A stretch of 34,766 bases of DNA. It comes from Actinospica sp. Lineage in GTDB: Bacteria > Actinomycetota > Actinomycetes > Streptomycetales > Catenulisporaceae. Under the pieces are notes generated by a model. It made no database searches. It worked only from the letters and a program-made list of their open reading frames with translations, and was not told the origin of the DNA. The DNA lies in contig DASTAE010000287.1 in assembly GCA_035712985.1 (NCBI GenBank), forward strand, positions 1 to 34,766, in the 5' to 3' direction. Within the stretch, counting starts at the first letter, position 1, and every line of letters starts with the position of its first letter. A program made the position numbers and the translations under genes. Positions 2,127 to 17,940 of the stretch are shown in pieces.

Positions 2127-3073
2127 CTCGTCGGCTCCTCGCGGTCCGCGCGTACGGTGATCTGTTCGGGTTCGAGGCCGAGGCGCACGCGGTCACGCAG
2201 GTCGAGTGCGGCGACGTATTCGGCGGGGAGTTGGATTCGGCCGGCGCGGTCCAGCAGCGCGTACTCCTGCGCGTTGGCCCGCTCGCCGAACTCGGTGCGC
2301 AGGACCTCGCTGCTGGTGCGGCCGTCGCGGATCTGGACGGTGCGCGGGACCTGGCTGGAGACGTTCTCGTCGTGGGTGACGATCAGGACCGCGACGCCGA
2401 GTTGCTCGTTGGCGGTGCGCAGGGCCTGGAAGACCGTGTCGGCCGACGCGGTGTCGAGTTCGCCGGTGGGTTCGTCGGCCAGGACCACCTTGGGGCGGTT
2501 CGCCAGGGCCACGCCGATGGCCACCCGCTGCTGCTCGCCGCCGGAGAGCTGGCCGGGGCGGCGGTCGGCGCAGTAGCCGATGCCGAGGAGTTCCAACAGC
2601 TCGTGGGCGCGCTTGCGGCGGGTGCCGCGGTTGACGCCGGCCAGGCGGAGCGGGGTCTCGATGTTCTCCCGGGCGTCCAGGTAGGGGAGCAGGTTGCGGC
2701 CGGTCTGCTGCCAGATGAAGCCGACGGTCTCGCGGCGATAGCGCAGGCGTTCGCGGCCCTTCATCGTGAGCAGGTCGTGGTCGGCGACCCGGGCCCTGCC
2801 CGCGGTGGGCCGGTCCAGGCCGGAGAGGATGTTGAGCAGGGTCGACTTGCCGGAACCCGAGGCGCCCACGATCGCGGTCAGCTCGCCGGGGCGGATGACG
2901 AGGTCCAGGCCCTGGAGCGCCTGCACCTCGACTCCGTCCGCCGCGTAGACGCGGACCAGCCGGTCGCACAGGATCAGCGCGTCGGCGCCGTACGCCGCGT
3001 GCGCCCGGGCCGCGGCCTCGGCCTCGAATTCCAGGCCGGCCAGGTCGGCGGCCGGTGCCTTCGCGTCGCTCAT
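2123..3073 (-). CDS. ABC transporter ATP-binding protein with a ~90-aa C-terminal extension (316 aa).
   Basis: Walker A GASGSGKST, signature LSGGEQQRVAIGVAL, Walker B VVLADEPTGELD, H-loop VTHD. The ATG at 3073 overlaps the stop of the upstream permease (ATGA). The N-terminal 270 aa of the 585-aa track ORF is Arg/Gly/Pro-rich out-of-gene read-through and is not called. Confidence 0.85.
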   Translation of the reverse strand: MSDAKAPAADLAGLEFEAEAAARAHAAYGADALILCDRLVRVYAADGVEVQALQGLDLVIRPGELTAIVGASGSGKSTLLNILSGLDRPTAGRARVADHDLLTMKGRERLRYRRETVGFIWQQTGRNLLPYLDARENIETPLRLAGVNRGTRRKRAHELLELLGIGYCADRRPGQLSGGEQQRVAIGVALANRPKVVLADEPTGELDTASADTVFQALRTANEQLGVAVLIVTHDENVSSQVPRTVQIRDGRTSSEVLRTEFGERANAQEYALLDRAGRIQLPAEYVAALDLRDRVRLGLEPEQITVRADREEPTR

Positions 3074-5685
3074 GCGTCCTCTCCCATCCTCAACTGCGCG
3101 GGAACACTGCGCCGCCGGGCGATCGCGGCCTGCAGCAGCACGCCGCAGCAGGTCAGCGCCAGGGCCGCGGCGGCGGTCAGCAGCGGGGTCACGGCGTCGA
3201 GCCGAAGGCCGGTCTCGGTGGCCAGGCCCGTGAACACGGTCAGATTCAGTGCGCTGCCGAAGACCGCGGGCAGCACGAGCGCGGCGAGCAGCCCGCCGAG
3301 GGTCGTGGCCGCGGCCAGCGGCGCGGTCTCGGCGAGCGCGATCCCGCGCGCCTGGCGCGGGCTCAGTCCCAAGGTGCCGAGCAGGGTCAGTCGGCGCGTT
3401 CGCGGAGCCGCGGTCAGCGCGAGGGCGAGCAGGATTCCGCAGATCCCGAAGCAGCCGGCCGCCGCGAGTCCGAGGACGTACCCGAACGCGGCCAGTCCGG
3501 CCAGCGGCTGCTTGGTGAGCCGGTCGAGGGCGTCGCCGCGGTACACGACGTGGTTCTGGCCGGGCACCGTGGCCGCCAGCGCCGCGTTCACCTTGGCCGG
3601 GTCGATTCCGTTGCCGGACACCAGGATCTCGGACACCAGCCAGAACTGCGCGGAGGATGCGACGGCCCACGTGGGGATGAGGACGAAGGGCTGGCCGGGA
3701 CCGTAGGCGGGCCGGGCCGGGCTCTGCGCTTGAACGGCCACGACCTTCGCCTCGAACGCGGGCGCCGCGCTCGGGGTGAGCTGGAAGGTCGAGCCGAGGG
3801 TGTATCCGCTGTCCGCGGAGGCGACCACCGGGACCGGGCCCGACACGCTCCGGGCGGGCAGCGCACCGGCGAGCGGCCACGGCGTGTCGGCCGAGACGCC
3901 GTCATATGTGCTCGGATCCACCGCGTACGCCGAGGCCTCGATGCCGGTGCCGTTGATCGACTGCGAGGCGACGGCCGTCGACGCGGTGACGCCCGGGACC
4001 CTGTCGAGCGCGGCGACCGCCTTTGCCGCGGCCGACGGCGCGGTGCCCGTGCTCAGCGCGATGGAGACGTCGGTTCCGGTCTGCAGCCAGGACTCCGTCT
4101 CGCGGCCGGACTCGATGTTGCGGTAGGCGAGTCCGCCGAGCGCGGCGAGCGTGAGCGCCAGGACGATCGCGAAGGTCGGCAGCGCGAGGTTGAGCGAGGA
4201 GCGGACCGCGCCGGACAGGCCGAGGAACGCGGTCGCGCCCTTGCGGCGTCGTGCGGCTCGCACGGCCGGGGCCAGTAGGAGCGGGGCGAAGCGCACGGCG
4301 ACAGCGGTGGTCACCGCGGCGACCAGGATCGGGGCCAGGGCGCCGAGCAGGTTCGAGCCCTGGCCGGTGCCTCCCAGGCCGCTCTGCCGCAGCAGGGCGA
4401 TGGTTCCGGCCGCCAGCAGGACGAGGATGAGCTCGAAGACGCGGCGGCGGGCCTTCGGGCGGCGGCGGATGTGGTCGTCGTCCCCGCGGAGGCGGGCGGC
4501 GCCGCGGTGTTCGAGGACTGCGAGCAGCGGGGGACCGCCGAGGACGATCAGCGCGACGCCGCCGTAGAGGGCCGCGGATTCCGTGTTCGCGCCCCGTGCG
4601 GCGACCGTGGCGACGGCGCCCGCCGCGACGAGGGCGATGAGCGTGAGCGGACCGAGCTCGCGGAGCACCTGGAGGGCCAGCTGCGTCAGCGACTGGCCGC
4701 GGGCTCGGAGCAGGGTGAAGTGGCCGCGGCGCCGGCTGACGACCAGGCGGGCGCAGAGCAGGATCGTCGCGCAGCCGACCGTCGCGACGCCGACCATGAT
4801 CAGGCTGAGGACGGAGTCGACCGCCGTGCGCTGCGACTGGAAGGTGTTGAGCGTGCTGGACGGCCCGGCCGTGACCTGCAGCATGAGTTGGGCGGCGGTG
4901 GTGCCGGAGCCGAACGCGGTCATCGCGTTCAGCAAGGAGCCGACGTCCGCCGCGGTGTAGGCGGCGGTGTCCAGCGGGACGCAGTAGACGGACAGGTCCG
5001 TGTCCGGGGTCCCGTTGGGGTTCTGCACCTCCGCGAGTTCCGACAGCTCGTCGGGGCCGACGAGCGCCGTGGTCGTCCAGAGGGTGCTTCCGTCCGGCTG
5101 GACGATCGGGGAGGGGGCCGCGAGGTCCGCGTCGTAGTTCCAGAACGCCGAGGCCGGATCGGTCGGCTCGACGATCCCGGTGACGTGGAACTGATAGTCC
5201 GCGGTGGAGATCACGGTGCCGACCCGCGCGCCGTAGAACTTCGCGTCGGTGGCGCTGAGCGCGATGTCGAAGGAGCCGGCGCCGGCCGAGTCGGGCAGCT
5301 TGCCGGCCAGCAGCTTCAAGTGCGAGCTCGGCGCGTCGCGGTACGCCAGGATCATCGCCGCCGTGAAGTTGTACGCGCCGACGACGGGCAGCCGCTTGCC
5401 GAGGCGGGCGCCGCCCCACGCCTGGCCGGTCAGCGGACGGGTCGCGGCGGGAGCCGCGTGCGCGAAGACGCCCAGCCCGCCGGACACCTCGGCGGCGGTC
5501 GACAGCTCAGGGCCCTGCGCGGTGAGCGCCAGGTCGACCGGGCCGGTGGCGCCCAGGGTCTGCTGGAGGGACTTCGTCAGCTGGTGTTGCACCAGGTCGG
5601 GCACGCCGGCCGCGAACAGCGCCGTCAGGAAGCTGAGGACGACCAGGAGGGTCAGGCCCGGGTAGCGGGAGCGTCGCTGCTTCAT
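3070..5685 (-). CDS. ABC transporter permease, FtsX/MacB family, with a duplicated FtsX-type 4-TM module and two large extracytoplasmic loops (871 aa).
   Basis: N-terminal TM helix, a ~250-aa loop and a 3-TM bundle, and this block occurs twice. Typical size and architecture for a YbbP-like double-FtsX permease. Its ATG at 5685 overlaps the stop of the upstream permease gene (ATGA). Confidence 0.85.
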   Translation of the reverse strand: MKQRRSRYPGLTLLVVLSFLTALFAAGVPDLVQHQLTKSLQQTLGATGPVDLALTAQGPELSTAAEVSGGLGVFAHAAPAATRPLTGQAWGGARLGKRLPVVGAYNFTAAMILAYRDAPSSHLKLLAGKLPDSAGAGSFDIALSATDAKFYGARVGTVISTADYQFHVTGIVEPTDPASAFWNYDADLAAPSPIVQPDGSTLWTTTALVGPDELSELAEVQNPNGTPDTDLSVYCVPLDTAAYTAADVGSLLNAMTAFGSGTTAAQLMLQVTAGPSSTLNTFQSQRTAVDSVLSLIMVGVATVGCATILLCARLVVSRRRGHFTLLRARGQSLTQLALQVLRELGPLTLIALVAAGAVATVAARGANTESAALYGGVALIVLGGPPLLAVLEHRGAARLRGDDDHIRRRPKARRRVFELILVLLAAGTIALLRQSGLGGTGQGSNLLGALAPILVAAVTTAVAVRFAPLLLAPAVRAARRRKGATAFLGLSGAVRSSLNLALPTFAIVLALTLAALGGLAYRNIESGRETESWLQTGTDVSIALSTGTAPSAAAKAVAALDRVPGVTASTAVASQSINGTGIEASAYAVDPSTYDGVSADTPWPLAGALPARSVSGPVPVVASADSGYTLGSTFQLTPSAAPAFEAKVVAVQAQSPARPAYGPGQPFVLIPTWAVASSAQFWLVSEILVSGNGIDPAKVNAALAATVPGQNHVVYRGDALDRLTKQPLAGLAAFGYVLGLAAAGCFGICGILLALALTAAPRTRRLTLLGTLGLSPRQARGIALAETAPLAAATTLGGLLAALVLPAVFGSALNLTVFTGLATETGLRLDAVTPLLTAAAALALTCCGVLLQAAIARRRSVPAQLRMGEDA

Positions 5686-8348
5686 CGGCCCGACTCCTCA
5701 CGCAGCACGGCGGCGGTCTCTCTGCGGCGCGCCCCGGCGAACGCGAAGGTGATCAGCGGCACGGCCAGCAGCGCCGCCACGCCGATCAGCACCTGCGGCC
5801 AGGGGGTCAGCACCGTGACCGGCGGCTGCGGTTCGGCCGCGGCCGAGGTCAGTGTGGCCACCGGGATCACCACCCTTCCGAGCAGGAGCCCGAGCGCGAC
5901 TCCGGCGAGCGCCCCGGGCCCGGCGAGCAGCGACTGTTCGAGGCAGAGCGTGCCGATCTTGCCGCGCCGGGAGAATCCGAGCGCGTCCAGCAGCGCGAAC
6001 TCCGCCGAGCGTTCGGACCCGGCGCTCAGGACGCTGACGATCAATCCGCACAGCGCGAGCAGGGTCGTCGCCAGGGCGACGGCGAGCAGCGCGCGCAGCG
6101 GCTCCTCGGCCAGGGGCGCCGTGCGCAGTTGCTGCTGGAGCTGCGAGCGGAAGGTCACGACGGCGCCGGACGGCAGGCCGCTGGGCGGCGCCGTCGAGGA
6201 GTCGGCGAGCCACGCCTCGTTCGTCGGCAGCTTCGCCGCGGCGTTGCTGACGATCAATCCGCCGCCCGGGGTCGAGACCGTCGGGAAGTCGGAGACGACG
6301 GCCACGATCTTGACGTTGAGCTGGCCCGCGCCGAGGGAGACGGTGGTCACCGCGCCGACGCCCAGGCTGAGCGTGTGCGCGAACGTCTGAGTCGCGATTG
6401 CGGGGATCGCGCCTCCGGAGTCCGGCGCGGCGGCCACCTCGCCCATCAGGGTGCTGAGCGGCACGGGGGAGAGGTCCGGGCGCAGGGTCACGGTGCGCGC
6501 GGCGCCCGCCGGGTCGACGGCCAGCAGCGTGGACTGCAGCGAACCGCTGGCCGAGATGAACGTGGACCGTGACAGCGATGTCACCGCGTGCACGCCCGGC
6601 GAAGCGGCCATCGCGGCCAGGCCGGGGGCGGTGAGGCTGCCCGCGGGGACGCGGACGTCGGCGTCGGCGCCGACCGTGAACGAGGCCTGATCCGCGGCGG
6701 AGCGCTCGGCGCTCGCGTACTCGCTGAGCGACAGGACGCCGGTGGCCACGGCCAGGGTGGTGAGCAGGACGGGGCCCGCGAGCTTCAGCGGCCTGCGTCC
6801 GGTCTGCCAGAACGCCAGCGGCAGCGCGAGGGAGCGGAAGCCGCGGGTCAGCTTGTCGCCGAGGCGCGCGGCCAGCGGCAGCAGGCGCAGGGCGAGGGCC
6901 GCGCCCGCCGCGAGGGCCAGCGCGGGCGCGGCGATCGCGACCGGGTCGTAGGTCGAGTCGCCGGACTGGTCGGTGCCGACGATCGAGTTCGAGGAGAACA
7001 TCTGCCAGCAGGCGAAGGCGGCCAGCGCGAGCAGCGCGACGTCGAATCCGGCGCGGCCCACGGCGGTGAGCGCCGCCTGCCTGCTGCGCCGCGTGCGCAG
7101 CGCGATCGGCGAGACCGCCGAGGTGAAGGCGGGGGCCAGGATCACCGCGATCGCGGCGATCGCGCAGCCGACGACCCCGGCCCACGCCGCGACCGGGACC
7201 CCCGTTCCGGTCGACAGGCCGCTCCGGCCGCTGATCGTGCCGGCCAGGGGGCTGGCGATGAAGGGGGCTGCGACGACGGCGGGCGCGGCGAGCATGACGG
7301 ATTCCATCGCGCGCGAGCGGACCAGTTGCGGGCCGGTGCCGCCGCGGGCCCAGAGCAGCGCCGCCTCGGTCTCGCGCGCGTCGGCCAGCAGCCGCACGAC
7401 GATCAGGAGCGCGGCGATCGCGACGACGAGCAGTTCGAGCAGTTCGGCGTAGACGAGCGACTGCGCGACCAGCGTCGCGGGCGCGAGGTTCGAGAGCAGT
7501 TCGGGCAGTTCGGTGGTCGCGCCGGGGTGGCCGAGCTCGTCGTCGGTGCCGAGGCCGGAGAGCACGGTGCGCAGCGCGTTCGCGTGCGTGGCCAGGTCGG
7601 TGTCGCCGATCGCGTCCGTGTCCGGGACGGCCACCCACTCCATCTGCTCGGCCGTCAGCGTTCCCTGCGCGAGATACGAGGCGTCGGTGAAGAAGGGGCC
7701 GACCATGGTCAGGCCGGTGCTCTGCTGGCTGCCCGCTCCGGCCAGCGGATCGAGCGCCCAGTACGAACCGGTCGGGTCGGTCGGGGTGAAGACGCCGCTG
7801 AGGACGAACGACGCGGTGGCGTTGTTGTCGGTCGTGCCGCTGATCCGGGCTCCGGGGGCGAGGCCGAGGGCCGTGGCCGCGGCCTGGTTCAGGGCGATCG
7901 GCACGGCACCGTCGACCATGCTCGTGCCCGGCCACGCGCCGGCGACGAGCTTCCCGTGCGTCGCGAGATCCTGGGGCGCGAGGAGCGTCGCCGACTTGTT
8001 GTTCGCCTGCGTCGATCCCGGCAGCGTCAGGTCGATCGCGGGTGCCGCGAACATTGTTACACGGGTGTTGCCCAAGGCACTGCTGAGTCGCCCGCGCACC
8101 TGTGCGGTCGCCTGGTCCGCGGGCATCGAAGGCGCCGCGCCGGACAGGGATATCGACGTGCCGCTCGCGGCCCGCAGCGCGCTGTGGATCGCGGCGTTCC
8201 CGGCCCGGCTGCTGTAGGTGAGCAGCGCGGCGGCGAACGCGGTCGTGAGCGCCACGGTCAGGACGACAGCGGCCAGCACGGTGCGGTGCAGCGCCATCCG
8301 GCGTAGCGCCAGCGGTACGCGTGACCGGCGCGCCGTGTGCACGCCCAT
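5682..8348 (-). CDS. Second ABC transporter permease, FtsX/MacB family, double-FtsX architecture (888 aa). First gene of the operon.
   Basis: Same architecture as 3070-5685. GGGAGGG Shine-Dalgarno immediately upstream of the ATG at 8348. A 120-bp divergent promoter region follows. Confidence 0.85.
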   Translation of the reverse strand: MGVHTARRSRVPLALRRMALHRTVLAAVVLTVALTTAFAAALLTYSSRAGNAAIHSALRAASGTSISLSGAAPSMPADQATAQVRGRLSSALGNTRVTMFAAPAIDLTLPGSTQANNKSATLLAPQDLATHGKLVAGAWPGTSMVDGAVPIALNQAAATALGLAPGARISGTTDNNATASFVLSGVFTPTDPTGSYWALDPLAGAGSQQSTGLTMVGPFFTDASYLAQGTLTAEQMEWVAVPDTDAIGDTDLATHANALRTVLSGLGTDDELGHPGATTELPELLSNLAPATLVAQSLVYAELLELLVVAIAALLIVVRLLADARETEAALLWARGGTGPQLVRSRAMESVMLAAPAVVAAPFIASPLAGTISGRSGLSTGTGVPVAAWAGVVGCAIAAIAVILAPAFTSAVSPIALRTRRSRQAALTAVGRAGFDVALLALAAFACWQMFSSNSIVGTDQSGDSTYDPVAIAAPALALAAGAALALRLLPLAARLGDKLTRGFRSLALPLAFWQTGRRPLKLAGPVLLTTLAVATGVLSLSEYASAERSAADQASFTVGADADVRVPAGSLTAPGLAAMAASPGVHAVTSLSRSTFISASGSLQSTLLAVDPAGAARTVTLRPDLSPVPLSTLMGEVAAAPDSGGAIPAIATQTFAHTLSLGVGAVTTVSLGAGQLNVKIVAVVSDFPTVSTPGGGLIVSNAAAKLPTNEAWLADSSTAPPSGLPSGAVVTFRSQLQQQLRTAPLAEEPLRALLAVALATTLLALCGLIVSVLSAGSERSAEFALLDALGFSRRGKIGTLCLEQSLLAGPGALAGVALGLLLGRVVIPVATLTSAAAEPQPPVTVLTPWPQVLIGVAALLAVPLITFAFAGARRRETAAVLREESGR

Positions 8349-8468: not shown

Positions 8469-9881
8469 ATGCTACCCGGCATGCGATTGAGCGCGCGGCC
8501 GACCGGCGGCGAACCGGGAGACCTCTCGCGGCCGACGGCGCTGCTGGTGGCCGGGGCCATGTTCATGGAACTGCTCGACGGCACGGCGCTGACCACGGCC
8601 GCGCCGCGGGTCGCCGCTGCCTTCGGCGTGGCGTCGGCCGCGATCGCCGTGCCGATCAGCGCGTACCTGATCACCGTCGCCGCGTTCATCCCGCTCGGCG
8701 GCTGGGCGGTGGACCGCTTCGGCGGGCGGCGGACGTTCGCGGCGGCGGTCACCCTGTTCACCGTGGCCTCGGCGCTGTGCGCGCTGGCGCCCGATCTGCC
8801 GCTGCTCGACCTGGCGCGGATCGCGCAGGGGGTCGGCGGCGCGATGATGGTCCCGGTCGGACGCCTCGTGGTGCTGCGCGGAATCCGGCGCGAGGAGGTG
8901 ATCCGCGCGGTCGCCTTCCTCACCTGGCCGGCGCTCGCGGCGCCGCTGCTGGGGCCGGTGCTCGGCGGACTGCTGGCCACGTACGCGTCCTGGCGCTGGA
9001 TCTTCCTGCTCAACGTCCCGCTCGGAGTGATCGCGCTCTGCCTCGTCCGCGCGATCCCCGCCGAGCGCGGCCCGGTCCGCCGCCTCGACGTGCCCGGCTG
9101 GTGGTGGACCGCCGTATGCCTCGGCAGCCTCACGGCGGGCGCGTCGATCGAGGCGATCCCCGGAGCCAGCGCCGCGGCCGCCGTCAGCTGCCTGATCATC
9201 GCCGTCGTCACCGGGGTCCTCGCCGTGCGACGGCTGCGGACGGCGCGGGAACCGCTGCTGCGCCTGGAGCCGCTGCGGATCCGCACCTTCCGCTTCGCCA
9301 ACGCGGGCGGCTCCGTCTTCCGCGTCGCCATCAACGCCGTGGCGTTCCTCGTGCCGCTGCTCTTCGTCGACTCCTTCGGCTGGACTCCTGCGCACGCGGG
9401 CGCGGCCTTCATCGCCCTCTACGCGGGGAACCTCGGCATCAAGCCGGCCACCACGCCGCTGCTCAAGCGCTTCGGCTTCCGCACGGTGGTAATAGGCGCG
9501 GTGCTGGGAGCCGTCGTCACCACCGCCCTCATCGCCACCCTGAGCGGGCGTACCCCGATTCTGCTGACGCTCGCGCTGCTGACGGCCAGCGGCTCCTTCC
9601 GCTCGATCGGCTTCACCGCCTACAACACCGTGACCTATGCCGACGTCCCGTCCGCCGACCTCAACGACGCCAACACCCTGTCGTCGGCGATCCAGCAGGT
9701 GGCCGTGGGCCTGGGAGCGGCGGCCGGGGCCCTGGCCATCCGCGCCTGCCTGGCGCTGGGAGTCCGCGACCCGTACCAGGGCGCCTTCCTCGTGGTGGCC
9801 GCCGCGCTCCTGATCCCCGCCCTCGAAGCGGCCCTCCTCCCACGCGACGTCGGCAGCGCGCTGACCGCCGCCTCGACCTGA
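8469..9881 (+). CDS. MFS transporter, DHA2 (EmrB/QacA-like, 14-TM) drug:H+ antiporter family.
   Basis: 470 aa. Multiple hydrophobic helices and the MFS motif G(x)3DRFGGRR after TM2. Divergent from the ABC operon. The start could alternatively be the ATG at 8481. Confidence 0.8.
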   Translation: MLPGMRLSARPTGGEPGDLSRPTALLVAGAMFMELLDGTALTTAAPRVAAAFGVASAAIAVPISAYLITVAAFIPLGGWAVDRFGGRRTFAAAVTLFTVASALCALAPDLPLLDLARIAQGVGGAMMVPVGRLVVLRGIRREEVIRAVAFLTWPALAAPLLGPVLGGLLATYASWRWIFLLNVPLGVIALCLVRAIPAERGPVRRLDVPGWWWTAVCLGSLTAGASIEAIPGASAAAAVSCLIIAVVTGVLAVRRLRTAREPLLRLEPLRIRTFRFANAGGSVFRVAINAVAFLVPLLFVDSFGWTPAHAGAAFIALYAGNLGIKPATTPLLKRFGFRTVVIGAVLGAVVTTALIATLSGRTPILLTLALLTASGSFRSIGFTAYNTVTYADVPSADLNDANTLSSAIQQVAVGLGAAAGALAIRACLALGVRDPYQGAFLVVAAALLIPALEAALLPRDVGSALTAAST

Positions 9882-9997
9882 GGTACTTGTATCTTCGGGA
9901 CAAACGATCTGTACTTCTGCGCCCTACCAGTGAAGTCAGCTGCCTGCTAAAGTCGCCGCGCGAACAACTGTGCGGTGTACAAGGTGGGGAGCGGAGC

Positions 9998-12400
9998 ATG
10001 TCGGGATCGGAATCCGCGGGTGGGCACGTGGAGGATCCTCCGGAGGAAGTGGGCGCGCCGGAACCCGAGGACGAGGCTCCGGAGCGGACCGTCGAGCAGA
10101 CCGCCGAGGTCGAGGAGACGACCGAGGCCGAAGCCGATGCGGGCGAAGAGGAAGAGGCAGCCGACCCGGAGGCGACGGTGCAGGCCCCGGCCGATCTCGC
10201 TCCGACGGTCGAGGCCCCGGCCGACCCGGCTGCCACCGTCGAGGCTCCGGCTGATCTGGCGCCGACCGAGGTGACGGCGCTGGCGACGAGCGGGCCGGCG
10301 ACGCAGCCGGTGGTTCCGCAGCAGCCGCAGCCGCAACCGCAGCAGGGCTTTGCGCCGCCTTCGATGCTGCCGGCGCAGCAAGCGCAGGCTCAGTTCCCGA
10401 TGCAGGCGCAGCAGCCTCAGCAGTTCCCGCAGCAGCCGCAGCCCCAGTACCCGGGCCAGCCGATGCCGATGCCGCAGCCGCCGCAGCAGCAGGCGCCCTA
10501 TGGCTACCCGGCGTACGGGCAGATGCCCGCTCAGTACCAGTCGATGCCGCTGCCCCTGATGAACGCGCCGGTGGATGCGGCGGTCGCGAAGCGGAAGCAG
10601 CGGCGGCGGTTCATGGTGGTGGGCGCGGTCGTGGTGCTCGCGCTCGTCGGGACCGGGATGTACGTGCTGCTGTCCGGCCGCAGCGGCGACTCCGTGGTCT
10701 CGCAGGTCACGTGCCGGCCGGCCAACCTCTCCTCGTGCCTGATCAAGGCGCCCAGCGGCGCCGTTCAGCTGGCCGCCGCCGGCAGTGACAACTGGCCTTC
10801 GCTGACCACGGCCACCCCGGATCAGTACGCTGCGGACTTCGTGACCGGCGTCCAGGGCGTCGGGGAGGAGACGCAGGGGCTGCTCGCGCAGGACGAGCTC
10901 AAGTCGATCGTGCACAACGACTGGAACGCCGTCGACGGGAACAACGTCGACATCGTGCTCCTCGAGTTCGACACCCAGAAGGGCGCCCAGGACTGGAACG
11001 CCACGCGGGCGGCCGAGATTCTCGCCGAGTATCCGGGTACGAACACGCCGATTCCGGGCGACGCGACCGGCGCGGCGCACGCCGCGGTGAAGGCGGATTC
11101 GAAGGGGAACTTCGACGCCGCGTACACGGCCGTGGTCGGGCGGATGGTGCTCGACGTCGCCTACTCGAGTCCGAGCCAGCTGAGCACGCCGGACCTGCGG
11201 AACTGGGCCGGGACCGAGCTCGCCTCGCTGAAGACCGAGCCGGCTCCCGCGACCGACCCGGCGCCCAAGGCCCCGGGAACGCAGCAGGTGGCGTGCAACT
11301 CGGGCCTGCAGTCCTGCCTGATGTCGGTGCCGGGGGACGGTTCGGCGTGGACCAGCCCGTCGGATTCGAAGTGGGTCTCCGGCGCCTCGCTGACCACCTC
11401 TCAGTTCGTCAGCCTGTTCTGGGAGAACGAGTCCGCCTCGCAGCAACAGCAGGTGCTCTCGAACTTCACCGCGGACGGCGTGACCGGGATCGCGCACGAG
11501 GACTGGACCGTCAACAGCGGCTACGAGCAGGCCGACATCTACCTCATCCAGACCATCACGGCCGCCGGCGCCTCGGCGCTGGACACCAGCAACTTCGGCG
11601 AGCCGCAGTGGGGTGGCGGGCTCAGCGGCGTGAGTTACAACGTGCCGAACGCGTCGGGGACCCAGGCCTGGTACACGAACAAGCAGGACTCGAACGGCTT
11701 CACCGACTTCGCGTACACCACGAACGTCGGCAACGTGATCGTGATGGGCTGGTTCTACTACTACGGGTCCTTCGACTCGGGCACCACGAACAGCTGGGTG
11801 ACCCCGGAGCTCGACCGCGTCCAAGCCAGCGAGCAGACACTTCCGCTGGGGCTTCTGCCGCTGAACAAGCCCACGCTGCCGGCCGCGAGCCAGGGGACGT
11901 GCTCGGGCGACTGCCTGATCGGGCTGCCGGGGAACACCACGGACACGACCTCCTCCTCGTACCAGACCACCAAGGCCCTGACCGCCGCCGGATACGCGGA
12001 CCGGTATGAGACCACTGCGAGCGCCGACGTGAACACGTGGCTCATGTCGGACGGGTTCGTCTCCGGCGAGCACCGTTCGTGGTCGGCCTCGGGCGGCGCC
12101 ACGGCCGACGCGGTGCTGCTGAAGTACGGCACGCCGGCCCAGGCGCAGGCGGCGACGCTGTTCGACTACGGCGCCAACGCGGCGAACAACCGCGTGTGCA
12201 CCGATACCGCGGTTCCGGGGTCGTACTGCCTGGCCGCACCGGTCAGCGCCGACGACATGCTGCAGAAGGAGACCGTCCGCGTGTTGGCGTGGAAGGGCGA
12301 CTACGAGGTCAGCGTCAGTGTGACGACCTCCAACTCGGCCGACCTGGCGCAGGCCTACGGCTGGGCGCAGCAGCAGCTGAACAAGCTGCCCGCCAACTGA
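9998..12400 (+). CDS. Large membrane-anchored protein (800 aa). It has an acidic disordered N-terminus with 3x10-aa tandem repeats, a Pro/Gln-rich tract and a single TM helix, followed by three divergent tandem copies of an unrecognised ~190-aa extracytoplasmic module.
   Basis: ATG at 9998 with a GGTGGGGA RBS 8-16 nt upstream. TM segment FMVVGAVVVLALVGTGMYVLL. The repeats start with C-x(6,7)-[SD]CL (TCRPANLSSCL, ACNSGLQSCL, TCSGDCL) and share an H-x-[DS]-W...[DA][IV]-x-L[LI] core. The upstream 407 codons of the 1207-aa track ORF overlap the MFS gene in another frame and are not called. Confidence 0.7.
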   Translation: MSGSESAGGHVEDPPEEVGAPEPEDEAPERTVEQTAEVEETTEAEADAGEEEEAADPEATVQAPADLAPTVEAPADPAATVEAPADLAPTEVTALATSGPATQPVVPQQPQPQPQQGFAPPSMLPAQQAQAQFPMQAQQPQQFPQQPQPQYPGQPMPMPQPPQQQAPYGYPAYGQMPAQYQSMPLPLMNAPVDAAVAKRKQRRRFMVVGAVVVLALVGTGMYVLLSGRSGDSVVSQVTCRPANLSSCLIKAPSGAVQLAAAGSDNWPSLTTATPDQYAADFVTGVQGVGEETQGLLAQDELKSIVHNDWNAVDGNNVDIVLLEFDTQKGAQDWNATRAAEILAEYPGTNTPIPGDATGAAHAAVKADSKGNFDAAYTAVVGRMVLDVAYSSPSQLSTPDLRNWAGTELASLKTEPAPATDPAPKAPGTQQVACNSGLQSCLMSVPGDGSAWTSPSDSKWVSGASLTTSQFVSLFWENESASQQQQVLSNFTADGVTGIAHEDWTVNSGYEQADIYLIQTITAAGASALDTSNFGEPQWGGGLSGVSYNVPNASGTQAWYTNKQDSNGFTDFAYTTNVGNVIVMGWFYYYGSFDSGTTNSWVTPELDRVQASEQTLPLGLLPLNKPTLPAASQGTCSGDCLIGLPGNTTDTTSSSYQTTKALTAAGYADRYETTASADVNTWLMSDGFVSGEHRSWSASGGATADAVLLKYGTPAQAQAATLFDYGANAANNRVCTDTAVPGSYCLAAPVSADDMLQKETVRVLAWKGDYEVSVSVTTSNSADLAQAYGWAQQQLNKLPAN
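10175..10264 (+). repeat. Three imperfect 30-bp tandem DNA repeats encoding T-V-[QE]-A-P-A-D-[LP]-A-[PA].
   Basis: Units at 10175-10204, 10205-10234 and 10235-10264, read directly. They lie inside the acidic N-terminal region of the 9998-12400 gene. Confidence 0.7.
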
Positions 12401-12419: not shown

Positions 12420-12902
12420 TCACGACTCGCTCACCTTCATCGGGGTGAGCGAGTCGCGTGTCAGGGGCTTGCGGCAGTGCGCGCAGCTCAGCTCCACGGC
12501 GACCGGCTCGCCGCAGTCATGCCGGAACTGCACGGCGGGCGCATCCACCGCCCACTTCTCTCCCCAGGTCAGCAGGCTGATCATCGCCGGGAACAGCTCG
12601 CGTCCGGCTTCCGTCAGGTGGTACTCGTACCGCGGCGGGTGCTCGCTGTAGAGGCGCCGCTCGATGATCCCGGCCGCCTCCAGCTTCCGTAGCCGGTCGG
12701 TGAGCACGTCGCGCGGCGCGCCCGTGTAGCCGACGATCCTCGCGAAGCGGTGCACCCCGTACCCCAACTCGCGCAGCGCGAGCAGCGACCACTTCTCGCC
12801 GACGATCTCCAGCGCCGCCGCCATCGTGCACGGACGGACCGCGAGGGGGGATTCGGCCAGGTCGAAGGGCTGATACCGGGGGGCTGCCCGCTGCGCGCTC
12901 AT
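12420..12902 (-). CDS. HxlR-family winged-helix transcriptional regulator (160 aa) with a Cys-containing C-terminal tail.
   Basis: Core ALEIVGEKWSLLALRELGYGVHRFARI...EYHLTEAGREL matches the HxlR-type HTH. The 3' part of the 634-aa track ORF. An internal ATG (MAAALEIV) is an alternative start. Confidence 0.8.
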   Translation of the reverse strand: MSAQRAAPRYQPFDLAESPLAVRPCTMAAALEIVGEKWSLLALRELGYGVHRFARIVGYTGAPRDVLTDRLRKLEAAGIIERRLYSEHPPRYEYHLTEAGRELFPAMISLLTWGEKWAVDAPAVQFRHDCGEPVAVELSCAHCRKPLTRDSLTPMKVSES

Positions 12903-12995: not shown

Positions 12996-14417
12996 ATGTC
13001 CCTGCCGCAGACCCAGGTGAAGCCGGCCGCCGCCGTGCCGCGCGACCATCCGCACGCCCTGCGCACCCTCGCGCTCGGCAGCCTCGGCGCCTTCGTCGTG
13101 TTCCTGGACACCACGATCGTGAACGTCGCCTTCGAGGCGATCAGCCACAGCTTCCACAGCACGACCGACCGGCTCGCCTGGGTGCTCAACGCCTACAGCC
13201 TGGTCTTCGCCGCCGCGCTGATCCCGGCCGGGCGGCTGGCCGACCGCTACGGCCGCAAGCGGCTGTTCCTGGTCGGCATGGGCGGATTCGCGCTGATGAG
13301 CGCGCTGTGCGGACTCGCCCCGAACGCCGAGGTGCTGATCGGCGGGCGCGCGCTGCAGGCCGCCTTCGCGGCGCTGATCACCCCGACCTCGCTCGCGCTG
13401 ATCCTGCCGGAGTTCCCGCCGGAGCGCCGTCCCTTCGCCATCGGCACCTGGGGCTCGATGAGCGCCGTGGCCGCCGCGCTCGGCCCGACGATCGGCGCGC
13501 TGCTCACGCAGTACGCGTCCTGGCGCTGGATCTTCCTGATCAATGTGCCGATCTGCGCGGCCGTCGTCCTCATCGGCCTGCGCACGCTGCGCGAGGGCCG
13601 CGATCCGCACGCCGAGGGCCTGCCGGACCCGCTCGGCGTGCTGCTGATCGCCGCCGTGCCGGCCGCGCTCAGCTTCTCGATCATCGAGGGGCCGCGCTGG
13701 GGGTGGACCGACGGCCGGGTCGTCGGCGGGTTCGTCGCCGCGGCCGTGCTGCTGCCGCTGTTCCTGCTGCGCAGCCGCGCCGCCCGCTTCCCGGCGATCG
13801 ACCTGAGCCTGTTCCGGGTCCGGCAGTTCACCGTCGTGAACGCCGCGACGCTGGTGTTCGCGGCGGCCTTCTACGGGACTCTGCTCTCGAACATCATCTT
13901 CCTGCAGACGGTCTGGCACTACAGCGTCCTGCGCGCCGCGCTCGCCAGCTCGCCGGGCCCGCTGGTCGTCGCGGTCGTGGCGCGGCAGTCCACGAAGCTG
14001 GCCCACCGCTTCGGACCGCGGATCGTGCTCACGATCGGCGCCGCCTGCTACGCCGCGGCCCTCGCCCTGTTCGCGGGCTCCATCGGCGCGCACTCGGAAT
14101 GGCTCGCGCACTGGCTGCCCATCTCGATGCTGATGGGCGTGGGCATCGGCATGACGCTGCCGGTCCAGTCGGGCGCCGCGGTGCAGACCCTGCCGCCCGC
14201 GCGCTTCGGGCTCGGCTCCGCGGTGAACGCGAGCTTCCGCCAGCTCGGCGCCGTGCTCGGGATCAGCCTGTTCGTCGCGGTCGTCGGCTCGCCGGGCCCG
14301 GCCGCCGCGGTCGACGCCTTCCACCGCACCTGGTGGCTGTTCGCGGCCTTCGGGGTCTTCAGCGGCCTGGTCTCCTGGACGCCGCGGCTGCGCGGCCGGG
14401 CTACGGCACGACCGTGA
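12996..14417 (+). CDS. MFS transporter, DHA2 drug-efflux family (473 aa).
   Basis: 14-TM pattern and the motif LADRYGRKRLF after TM2. GAGGGTGG RBS. Divergent from the HxlR regulator, the usual regulator-efflux arrangement. Confidence 0.9.
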   Translation: MSLPQTQVKPAAAVPRDHPHALRTLALGSLGAFVVFLDTTIVNVAFEAISHSFHSTTDRLAWVLNAYSLVFAAALIPAGRLADRYGRKRLFLVGMGGFALMSALCGLAPNAEVLIGGRALQAAFAALITPTSLALILPEFPPERRPFAIGTWGSMSAVAAALGPTIGALLTQYASWRWIFLINVPICAAVVLIGLRTLREGRDPHAEGLPDPLGVLLIAAVPAALSFSIIEGPRWGWTDGRVVGGFVAAAVLLPLFLLRSRAARFPAIDLSLFRVRQFTVVNAATLVFAAAFYGTLLSNIIFLQTVWHYSVLRAALASSPGPLVVAVVARQSTKLAHRFGPRIVLTIGAACYAAALALFAGSIGAHSEWLAHWLPISMLMGVGIGMTLPVQSGAAVQTLPPARFGLGSAVNASFRQLGAVLGISLFVAVVGSPGPAAAVDAFHRTWWLFAAFGVFSGLVSWTPRLRGRATARP

Positions 14418-16108: not shown

Positions 16109-16909
16109 TCAGCCCAATGCGACGGCGGCCTCGGCGGTCTGCGCGATGAAGGTCAGCGACTCCTGGAAGTACAGCCGCACGGTCTCCGCGTCGTGCGTCA
16201 GGTAGCCGATGGAGACGTCCTGGCCGAGGTGCAGCTCGAAGTCGCCGCCGCGGGTGCTGACCAGCAGGCCGGCGTCGATCGCGGGAGCCCAGACGATCTC
16301 GCCGCCGTCGCCGAGCATGCGGGTCAGGTGCTCGCGGATCGGGTAGCCGTGGTCGCTGGTCTCGGCCACGGCCGTGTATCCGTCGGCGGACAGCAGCAGG
16401 CTGTAGGGCCCTGCGACACCGGCGAGGCGCAGCGCGGTGAGCGCCTTCGCGAGGGCCGTCGGATACTCGCGGGGGTCCTCGGGAACGGTGATCGCCGCGT
16501 TCGATGCGGCCTGCCGGATGCCGGTGATCCCGGCCGCGGCGAAGCCGTCCACGATCGCGCGGTCCTCGGCGAAGGCCAGCTGCTTGGCGGCGTCCTTCAC
16601 CGGCTGCCAGTCCGCGTCCTTGGCGCCGCGCGCGACCGCGTCCACCGCGGACCGTCGCACGGTGAACGGCACCCGGAACCGCACGACGTTCGCCACCTCG
16701 TAGCAGCCCGCCTCCACGCCCGCGCTCGGCGCGTCCAGCGCGCGCAGATGCCCGGTGCCCACCGCCGCGAGGGTGAGCCCGGCCGGCCCGATCACGTCCA
16801 CGGCGCGGCGCGCGGCCACGTGCAGCTCGAAGGTGCGGCGCGCCTCGGCCTCGATGTCCGCCCAGGCCTCGTCGGCGATCGGGGCGAGTTCACGATGCAG
16901 GTTGTTCAC
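16109..16909 (-). CDS. enc: Family 1 encapsulin nanocompartment shell protein (linocin M18-like, HK97 fold), 266 aa.
   Basis: N-terminus MNNLHRELAPIADEAWADIEAEARRTF and overall length match family-1 encapsulins. The GTG start overlaps the stop of the upstream DyP gene (GTGA at 16906-16909). Confidence 0.9.
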   Translation of the reverse strand: MNNLHRELAPIADEAWADIEAEARRTFELHVAARRAVDVIGPAGLTLAAVGTGHLRALDAPSAGVEAGCYEVANVVRFRVPFTVRRSAVDAVARGAKDADWQPVKDAAKQLAFAEDRAIVDGFAAAGITGIRQAASNAAITVPEDPREYPTALAKALTALRLAGVAGPYSLLLSADGYTAVAETSDHGYPIREHLTRMLGDGGEIVWAPAIDAGLLVSTRGGDFELHLGQDVSIGYLTHDAETVRLYFQESLTFIAQTAEAAVALG

Positions 16910-17940
16910 GATGCCAGGCTCCTTCGCAGGCTTCCGATACCGAGCGAGCCGTCGTCGACGGTCGCGCTTTCGATCACGCTCACGGTTGCGTCTTCGGTGA
17001 TCGATTCCGGCGGATCCTCGAGGAATTCGGCGCTCGGGCAGAAGAACAGCGCGCCGGTCACGGCCGTCGAGAACTCGAGGATCCGATCCGTCCGGCCCGG
17101 CACGTCTCCGAGGAACATCCGCCGCAGCATCCGCTCGGTCACCTCGGGGCTCGCCGCGTAGCCGATGAAGTAGGTGCCGAACTCGCCCGAGCCGACCCGG
17201 CCGAAGGGCATGTTGTCGCGCACGATCTGCCGCTCGGTGCCGTCCTCGTCCACGATCGTGTTCAGCGCGACGTGCGAGTCGGCGGGCTTGACCGTGTCGT
17301 CGAGCTCGATGTCGTCCAGCTTCGTGCGCCCGATGATCCGCTCCTGCTGCTCGACCGGGAGCCGGTTCCAGGACTCCAGGTCGTGCAGGTACTTCTGCAC
17401 GATCACGTAGCTGCCGCCGGCGAAATCAGCGTCCAGCTCCGGGGTGACCAGCGCCGCCGCGAGCGCGGCCGGTCCCGTCGGATTCTCCGTCCCGTCCACG
17501 AACCCGAGCAGGTCCCGCTCGTCGAAGTACTTGAAGCCGTGCACCTCGTCGACCACCAGGACCGCCGGGCCCAGCTTCCGCACGAGCTGCCCGGCGAGCT
17601 CGAAGCACAGGTCCATCCGCCGCGCCCGGAGATGCAGGAGCAGGTCGCCGGGCGTGGCCGGAGCCGTGTGCCGCGGCCCCTCCAGCCGCTCGAAGGGATG
17701 CAGTTCGGCCGGACGCGCCCCCGGGAACAGCCGGTCCCAGGCGGCCGATCCGATCCCGGCGACGGCCGTCAGCCCGCCGTCCGGGATCCGGAAGCCGACC
17801 GAACGGACCAGCCCGGCCAGGTCGGCGAGCGTGTCCCGGACGGCGTCCTCGCCGCCCGGCTCGATCGTGGCCACCAGGAAGATCGCCGCCGCCGTGAGCG
17901 GGGTCAGCACCGGTTGCGGCTCGGGTGGGGTGGTCGCCAT
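16906..17940 (-). CDS. dyp: Dye-decolorizing (DyP-type) peroxidase with a C-terminal encapsulin targeting peptide, i.e. a cargo protein.
   Basis: DyP-type core (FGFVDGTENP, heme-binding region) and C-terminal ...DDGSLGIGSLRRSLAS matching the SxGIGSL[KR] encapsulin cargo-loading peptide. Translationally coupled to enc. Confidence 0.9.
   Translation of the reverse strand: MATTPPEPQPVLTPLTAAAIFLVATIEPGGEDAVRDTLADLAGLVRSVGFRIPDGGLTAVAGIGSAAWDRLFPGARPAELHPFERLEGPRHTAPATPGDLLLHLRARRMDLCFELAGQLVRKLGPAVLVVDEVHGFKYFDERDLLGFVDGTENPTGPAALAAALVTPELDADFAGGSYVIVQKYLHDLESWNRLPVEQQERIIGRTKLDDIELDDTVKPADSHVALNTIVDEDGTERQIVRDNMPFGRVGSGEFGTYFIGYAASPEVTERMLRRMFLGDVPGRTDRILEFSTAVTGALFFCPSAEFLEDPPESITEDATVSVIESATVDDGSLGIGSLRRSLAS

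Follow-up and report, generated by a model that had tools for sequence, protein, structure and literature searches.

What is the task of a membrane protein that exposes three diverged copies of one and the same module on the outside of an actinobacterial cell? The question is raised by a gene for 800 amino acids (aa) at positions 9998-12400 of a 34,766-nucleotide stretch of DNA from Actinospica sp. (GenBank assembly GCA_035712985.1, contig DASTAE010000287.1, positions 1 to 34,766 of the forward strand), which we analysed at its full length and refer to as the window. An earlier note, made from the letters of the DNA, had described the product as a large membrane protein with three divergent tandem extracytoplasmic modules of a kind it did not recognise, and had suggested binding or sensing at the cell surface. 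The analysis presented here establishes the repeat by sequence comparison, very probably places the module in the fold class of the sensor domain found in the Mycobacterium tuberculosis kinase PknH, and makes a ligand-binding (or sensing) function of the ectodomain moderately likely.

The triplicated module

The three modules occupy most of the protein downstream of its single membrane span:

10703..11245, + strand: module 1 (M1), residues 236-416, with a C239-x7-C247 loop at its N-terminus and the motif H306-N-D-W
11285..11833, + strand: module 2 (M2), residues 430-612, with C433-x6-C440 and H500-E-D-W; alignable to M1 by hhalign and of the same secondary-structure order in the ectodomain model
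11891..12397, + strand: module 3 (M3), residues 632-800, with C635-x3-C639, a further Cys pair (C734/C744) and H692-R-S-W; the most diverged copy

For pairwise comparison the modules were taken as residues 233-428, 429-628 and 629-800, Smith-Waterman z-scores being derived from 300 shuffles and hhalign profiles from 59-61 orthologues per module. All three pairs rise far above chance: M1/M2 reach a Smith-Waterman score of 122 (z 14.5; hhalign E 1.7e-16 over 176 columns), M1/M3 a score of 87 (z 8.1; E 1.9e-10) and M2/M3 a score of 74 (z 5.3; E 3.1e-6), while the shuffles averaged 34-37 and 0/300 attained the observed value. Identity between the paralogous modules is ~20-24%, and each module shares 54-62% identity across the homologous proteins compared. 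Judged from these alignments, the triplication of the ~180-aa module is real, as the earlier note had claimed, and old. No additional copies of the module were found elsewhere in the window.

The short motifs which had been read from the translation largely hold as well. The H-x-[DS]-W core is found in all modules in the forms listed above, and D-[IA]-x-L-[LI] is to be seen as well. An opening C-x(6,7)-C applies to M1 (x7) and M2 (x6), but M3 starts with C-x3-C (CSGDCL), and its second pair, C734/C744, had been missing from the description. All eight Cys residues are present in every homologue covering the respective column, each module contains an even number of them, and the four Cys of M3 were encountered in 61/61 homologues; the CxnC loops opening each module, as well as C734/C744, probably form disulfides.

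Fold of the module

AlphaFold2 models the 569-aa ectodomain (residues ~232-800) with a predicted local distance difference test score (pLDDT) of 87.4 and a predicted template modelling score (pTM) of 0.80, and M1 alone with 91.1 and 0.88, respectively. Common to each module is the order of elements: it opens with a short helix and two helices, continues with two long strands, a long helix and four strands, and ends in a C-terminal helix. Because the linkers reach pLDDT values of 75-84, which together with the pTM of the ectodomain imply confident inter-domain geometry, we infer that the three modules would pack as one fairly rigid unit.

The structure searches gave concordant results. Searching with the whole ectodomain, Foldseek returned the PknH sensor (4esq) as the best match (E 1.2e-4, probability 1.00), followed by TiME (7cu8) and the Rv0999 orthologue (4tmd). 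The twisted antiparallel sheet sandwiched by helices that makes up the PknH sensor fold is seen in the predicted structure; structural alignments of the modules with the M. tuberculosis sensor (PDB 4ESQ) show 11-15% identity. Proteins of the wider Mog1/PsbP-like fold (LpqN, Mtc28, Apa, DcrB, Tsi3) exhibit weaker structural likeness than PknH and TiME, and no sequence similarity. The models thus very probably describe the module as a divergent, PknH_C-like alpha/beta sandwich inside this wider Mog1/PsbP-like fold, and its remote descent from a PknH-type sensor fold is probable. That the module is unrecognised remains correct for Pfam, NCBIfam and PDB sequence matches, but its fold class is known and not new.

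The arrangement differs from that of PknH, in which one sensor copy lies C-terminal to a kinase and a transmembrane (TM) helix; in the window protein a disordered tail precedes the TM helix, a kinase is lacking and three copies stand in tandem. With the fold being known, it is the sequence family, the triplication and the fusion to a disordered tail that stands in for the kinase that appear to be new, as they are absent from the libraries and the literature searched.

Sequence-family membership and distribution

Scans of the full protein against Pfam and NCBIfam yielded no curated family; the only library line, DUF5693 with E 0.31, was discarded as noise, and a PDB sequence search with the profiles A1 and A2 resulted in noise or in signal-peptide matches to LpqN. 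PF14032 (PknH_C) was not matched when the complete protein was submitted to hmmscan with a limit of E<=10, and only 1/56 domain-only relatives reached E 0.047. The PknH sensor sequence used for comparison, 100% identical to 4esq_A, gathered 77 PF14032 proteins. Aligned by hhalign with a 70-sequence PknH-clade alignment, which is of low diversity (effective number of sequences, Neff, 3.6), the profile A3 and all three modules obtained probabilities of 0.04-0.6%, and A3 against the single 4esq sequence obtained 0.2%. PknH and TiME have been described as sharing two intramolecular disulfides, conserved at positions specific to the family (PMC8378821, PMC4118811). The modules do not appear to have them, M1 and M2 possessing one N-terminal CxnC pair each, and the Cys residues of 4esq, which sit in LPDC, WKNC, GWEC and NACG, form by sequence a pattern unlike that of the modules. 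Shared with PknH_C-type proteins is the extracytoplasmic location in Actinomycetota with a TM or lipid anchor. On sequence grounds, the window protein cannot be filed as a member of PF14032, and the modules also differ in sequence family from the mycobacterial PknH_C lipoproteins (LpqQ, LprH, LppH, LpqA) and the Rv0999 orthologue (4TMD), whose functions are likewise uncharacterised.

The nearest curated family is DUF7373_N (PF24088), itself uncharacterised and matched below threshold: 9/56 domain-only relatives show it with a best E of 4.5e-4, and residues 115-237 of one full-length relative (P0161) align with positions 50-169 of the 193-position profile at E 9e-4 and 19.6 bits, compared to a gathering score of 27. 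These matches are collinear and lie over the beta-core of the module, and no other curated family gave a repeated signal; the window protein itself is without a match. DUF3558 (PF12079) was matched by 7/57 full-length relatives, always in the signal peptide and lipobox only (profile positions 1-34 or 1-51), and was rejected because the matches disappear once signal peptides are trimmed.

An exhaustive hidden Markov model search at E<=1e-3 among 1.84 billion cluster representatives retrieved only 114, which carry three modules (600-975 aa), two modules (400-500 aa) or, in many cases, a single module (~200-260 aa). Within the last size group (n=60), a lipoprotein signal peptide is carried by 40, and 8 further ones possess a TM helix or signal at the N-terminus, in some cases together with a Pro-rich tail. 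Actinospica and Actinocrinis harbour the three-module form; single-module forms come from Jatrophihabitans/Jatrophihabitantaceae, Pseudonocardiales and Kitasatospora. With the module profile A3, a word-indexed search for homologues, restricted to the 8000 candidates with the most words in common, found 4 proteins. As far as these searches reach, the modules constitute a rare, uncatalogued actinobacterial domain family.

Topology and cytoplasmic tail

Upstream of the modules, the following features were mapped:

9998..10288, + strand: acidic Glu/Ala/Pro-rich segment, residues 1-97 (23% Glu, net charge -28)
10160..10266, + strand: 30-bp tandem repeat encoding TVEAPADLAP-type decapeptides (Tandem Repeats Finder: 3.6 copies, 70% matches, score 86)
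10289..10567, + strand: Pro/Gln-rich low-complexity tract, residues 98-190 (30% Gln, 27% Pro)
10589..10609, + strand: positively charged juxtamembrane KRKQRRR, residues 198-204, read from the sequence
10610..10672, + strand: TM helix FMVVGAVVVLALVGTGMYVLL, residues 205-225 (F205-L225), by Kyte-Doolittle hydropathy

Much of this had been anticipated by the earlier note: its 30-bp repeats at 10175-10264 agree with the Tandem Repeats Finder result, the acidic tail and the Pro/Gln tract are borne out by the composition, and its one TM helix corresponds to the sole Kyte-Doolittle peak above 1.6 in the whole protein (residues 203-229, maximum 2.47). According to the positive-inside rule, KRKQRRR is an N-in signal, and since it stands directly before the only TM helix, an N-in/C-out topology is predicted, i.e. 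the window protein would be a type II single-pass (bitopic) membrane protein. Residues 1-97 probably are disordered and cytoplasmic.

The tails of the homologues are hypervariable in sequence and in length (18-303 aa). Two short motifs are kept in most of them, MS[EG][SP]E[SP] at the start (34/51 tails) and W-x-x-P-[DG] around a lone Trp (32/51), and their persistence hints at a cytoplasmic partner.

Putative function and alternative explanations

By analogy with PknH, TiME, LpqN, Apa and Mtc28, we regard it as moderately likely that the window protein binds (or senses) a ligand outside the cytoplasm. The ectodomain is expected outside the cytoplasm because KRKQRRR precedes the sole TM helix, the eight Cys residues are conserved and 40/60 of the single-module relatives are of lipoprotein type. 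Reviews and the papers on TiME ascribe to the PknH-type fold a large cleft that is conserved and presumed to accommodate a small molecule (PMC3601408, PMC4118811). In the mechanism we propose, the ectodomain would bind, on the outside of the cell, a ligand other than a protein, either a glycan or lipid of the envelope or a small molecule from the environment, which would sit in the fold-typical cleft of each module or of M1, the best-conserved one with the largest number of invariant columns; the disordered tail, via the two short motifs present in most orthologues, would then be the only means of contact with a cytoplasmic partner. The surface role suggested earlier is hence supported by the fold match, the conserved Cys residues and the lipoprotein-type relatives, while binding or sensing as such is what we infer from them.

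Several points weigh against this proposal. Homology to PknH_C is undetectable at the sequence level (hmmscan; hhalign below 1%) and the two hallmark disulfides seem to have no counterpart in the modules. The analysis identified neither a ligand nor a partner nor an output domain for the window protein, and the ligand of PknH itself is not established, so that the analogy would carry little mechanistic detail. A conserved neighbourhood is lacking as well, all seven contexts (the window and six homologue loci) being different, and with it any link to a pathway. Finally, the tail of the window protein has no Trp and hence no W-x-x-P-[DG] motif, bearing instead three TVEAPADLAP-type repeats.

Scans with Pfam and NCBIfam revealed no kinase, other enzymatic or DNA-binding domain in the window protein, and any role in transmembrane signalling appears rather unlikely. 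It is unlikely, too, that the protein serves as the sensing part of a signalling device, be it an anti-sigma factor or a co-receptor which passes the signal to a separate kinase or partner via the tail: the same libraries show neither an anti-sigma domain (zf-HC2/ASD) nor a kinase or HAMP domain nor any other that is used in signalling, none of the seven contexts has a sigma factor, kinase or two-component gene as conserved neighbour (an adjacent sigma-factor gene is absent from all seven), the tail measures only ~18-25 residues in some homologues (some of these starts possibly being miscalled) and the W motif is missing from the window protein. Readings as an enzyme or as an anti-sigma factor were rejected, given the lack of such domains and of sigma or kinase neighbours. 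Quite unlikely is the more elaborate idea of a kinase-independent transmembrane receptor or scaffold of a hitherto undescribed type, in which the modules would form a rigid pseudo-trimeric ectodomain coupled to the motif-bearing tail (MSxSE start, W-x-x-P-D) and ligand-driven clustering would control the recruitment of partners.

As a lipid or glycolipid handler of the LpqN/LprG type, the protein would shuttle or hold lipids of wall biogenesis by means of its modules without any sensing. LpqN does belong to the wider fold, but its structural matches fall far behind those of PknH and TiME, and neither MmpL nor any other transporter was found as conserved neighbour; this reading is very unlikely. 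A TiME-like envelope conduit, with modules oligomerising into wall-spanning rings or tubes that aid protein export in the way proposed for TiME of mycobacteria, is highly improbable. The fold similarity is good in this case, but TiME (Rv3705c; 7CU8, 7CU9) is a single domain that assembles into 7/8-fold rings and tubes via specific interfaces of small residues and whose two disulfides are conserved (PMC8378821). Whereas TiME forms these D7/D8 rings and tubes, the window protein consists of three covalently linked, diverged modules predicted to pack together, and its Cys pattern differs from the two disulfides of TiME. Actinospica is not known to possess a mycomembrane, which also counts against a conduit.

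By this fold assignment, the PknH sensor fold is not confined to kinases and lipoproteins of mycobacteria but extends into acid-soil Actinospicaceae. We know of no ligand identified for the PknH domain since the structure of 2012; the gene occurs in a named species, Actinospica durhamensis (NCBI assembly), and the three-domain, kinase-free form could serve in the hunt for such a ligand. In other respects, the window protein is an ordinary hypothetical envelope protein without pathway context, which will cause little surprise among specialists of the actinobacterial envelope; we regard the result as useful for annotation, and the protein may offer a way into the PknH-ligand question.

The gene and its start codon

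The reading frame and its putative ribosome-binding site are located as follows:

9984..9989, + strand: Shine-Dalgarno-like GGGGAG, read from the sequence, 8 nt 5' of the ATG at 9998
9998..12400, + strand: coding sequence, 800 aa plus stop, translated without internal stops

The open reading frame (ORF) is a genuine high-GC gene, with a GC content of 0.66/0.52/0.92 at the three codon positions (GC3 0.92). Spurious long ORFs are frequent in high-GC DNA and an antisense ORF of 821 aa overlaps this one, but the notion that the gene is such an artefact without function can be dismissed in view of the GC3, the conservation of Cys residues and motifs in 60 homologues of 50-72% identity, and the confidently predicted fold. 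The antisense ORF itself and an upstream stop-to-stop extension are the usual high-GC artefacts.

A protein from an Actinospica sp. metagenome-assembled genome (P0001), whose ectodomain is 100% identical to that of the window protein, was deposited as 790 aa starting from GTG 10028, i.e. 10 codons after ATG 9998. We favour ATG 9998 because of the GGGGAG site and the N-terminal MSGSES, which close homologues have in common; the deposited version of P0001 probably is too short. In the A. durhamensis homologue, locus KDL01_34070 (L005, 2260-4227), annotated with 591 aa, the ORF reaches 655 aa and in this longer form regains the tail, a WASPG motif, an Arg-rich stretch and the TM helix. Both deposited starts look too far downstream.

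A weak terminator-like hairpin (9870-9884) overlaps the stop codon of the upstream gene, which encodes a transporter of the major facilitator superfamily (MFS). The hairpin is consistent with a promoter of the target gene's own in the 116-nt gap; a scan for promoters and terminators found no sigma-70-type consensus and, apart from this hairpin, nothing of use.

Gene neighbourhood

Around the target gene and the upstream MFS transporter, the window contains, besides a universal stress protein (USP) gene and an aquaporin gene, which come after the second MFS transporter and before the encapsulin pair:

3070-8348, - strand: two adjacent ORFs of 871 and 888 aa with FtsX-like permease domains
12420-12830, - strand: HxlR-family regulator, convergent to the target gene and divergent from an MFS transporter (12996-14417, + strand)
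16109-17940, - strand: encapsulin shell protein (Linocin_M18, E 2.4e-90) and DyP-type peroxidase, the encapsulin gene directly downstream with a 4-nt overlap

At the six homologue loci the gene is flanked by other genes altogether, for example glycoside hydrolases, a cluster of RHS/WXG100 type, one for a terpene, and exosortase-linked glycosyltransferases. The gene stands by itself, and its context therefore offers no functional lead. A pair of HxlR regulator and MFS/sugar transporter recurs ~3 kb from the homologue in one close relative only (L001), and this proximity is probably a remnant of synteny, with no functional link behind it. On an Actinocrinis contig (L007, 79-5583), the homologue adjoins a WXG100-like gene and a gene for a 1316-aa RHS-repeat toxin-like protein, an arrangement found at no other examined locus. 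The two giant FtsX-type permeases probably represent an efflux system of the ATP-binding cassette type (MacB/DevC-like) or a system of the lipoprotein-release type, and the encapsulin and DyP genes are a classic nanocompartment-cargo operon.

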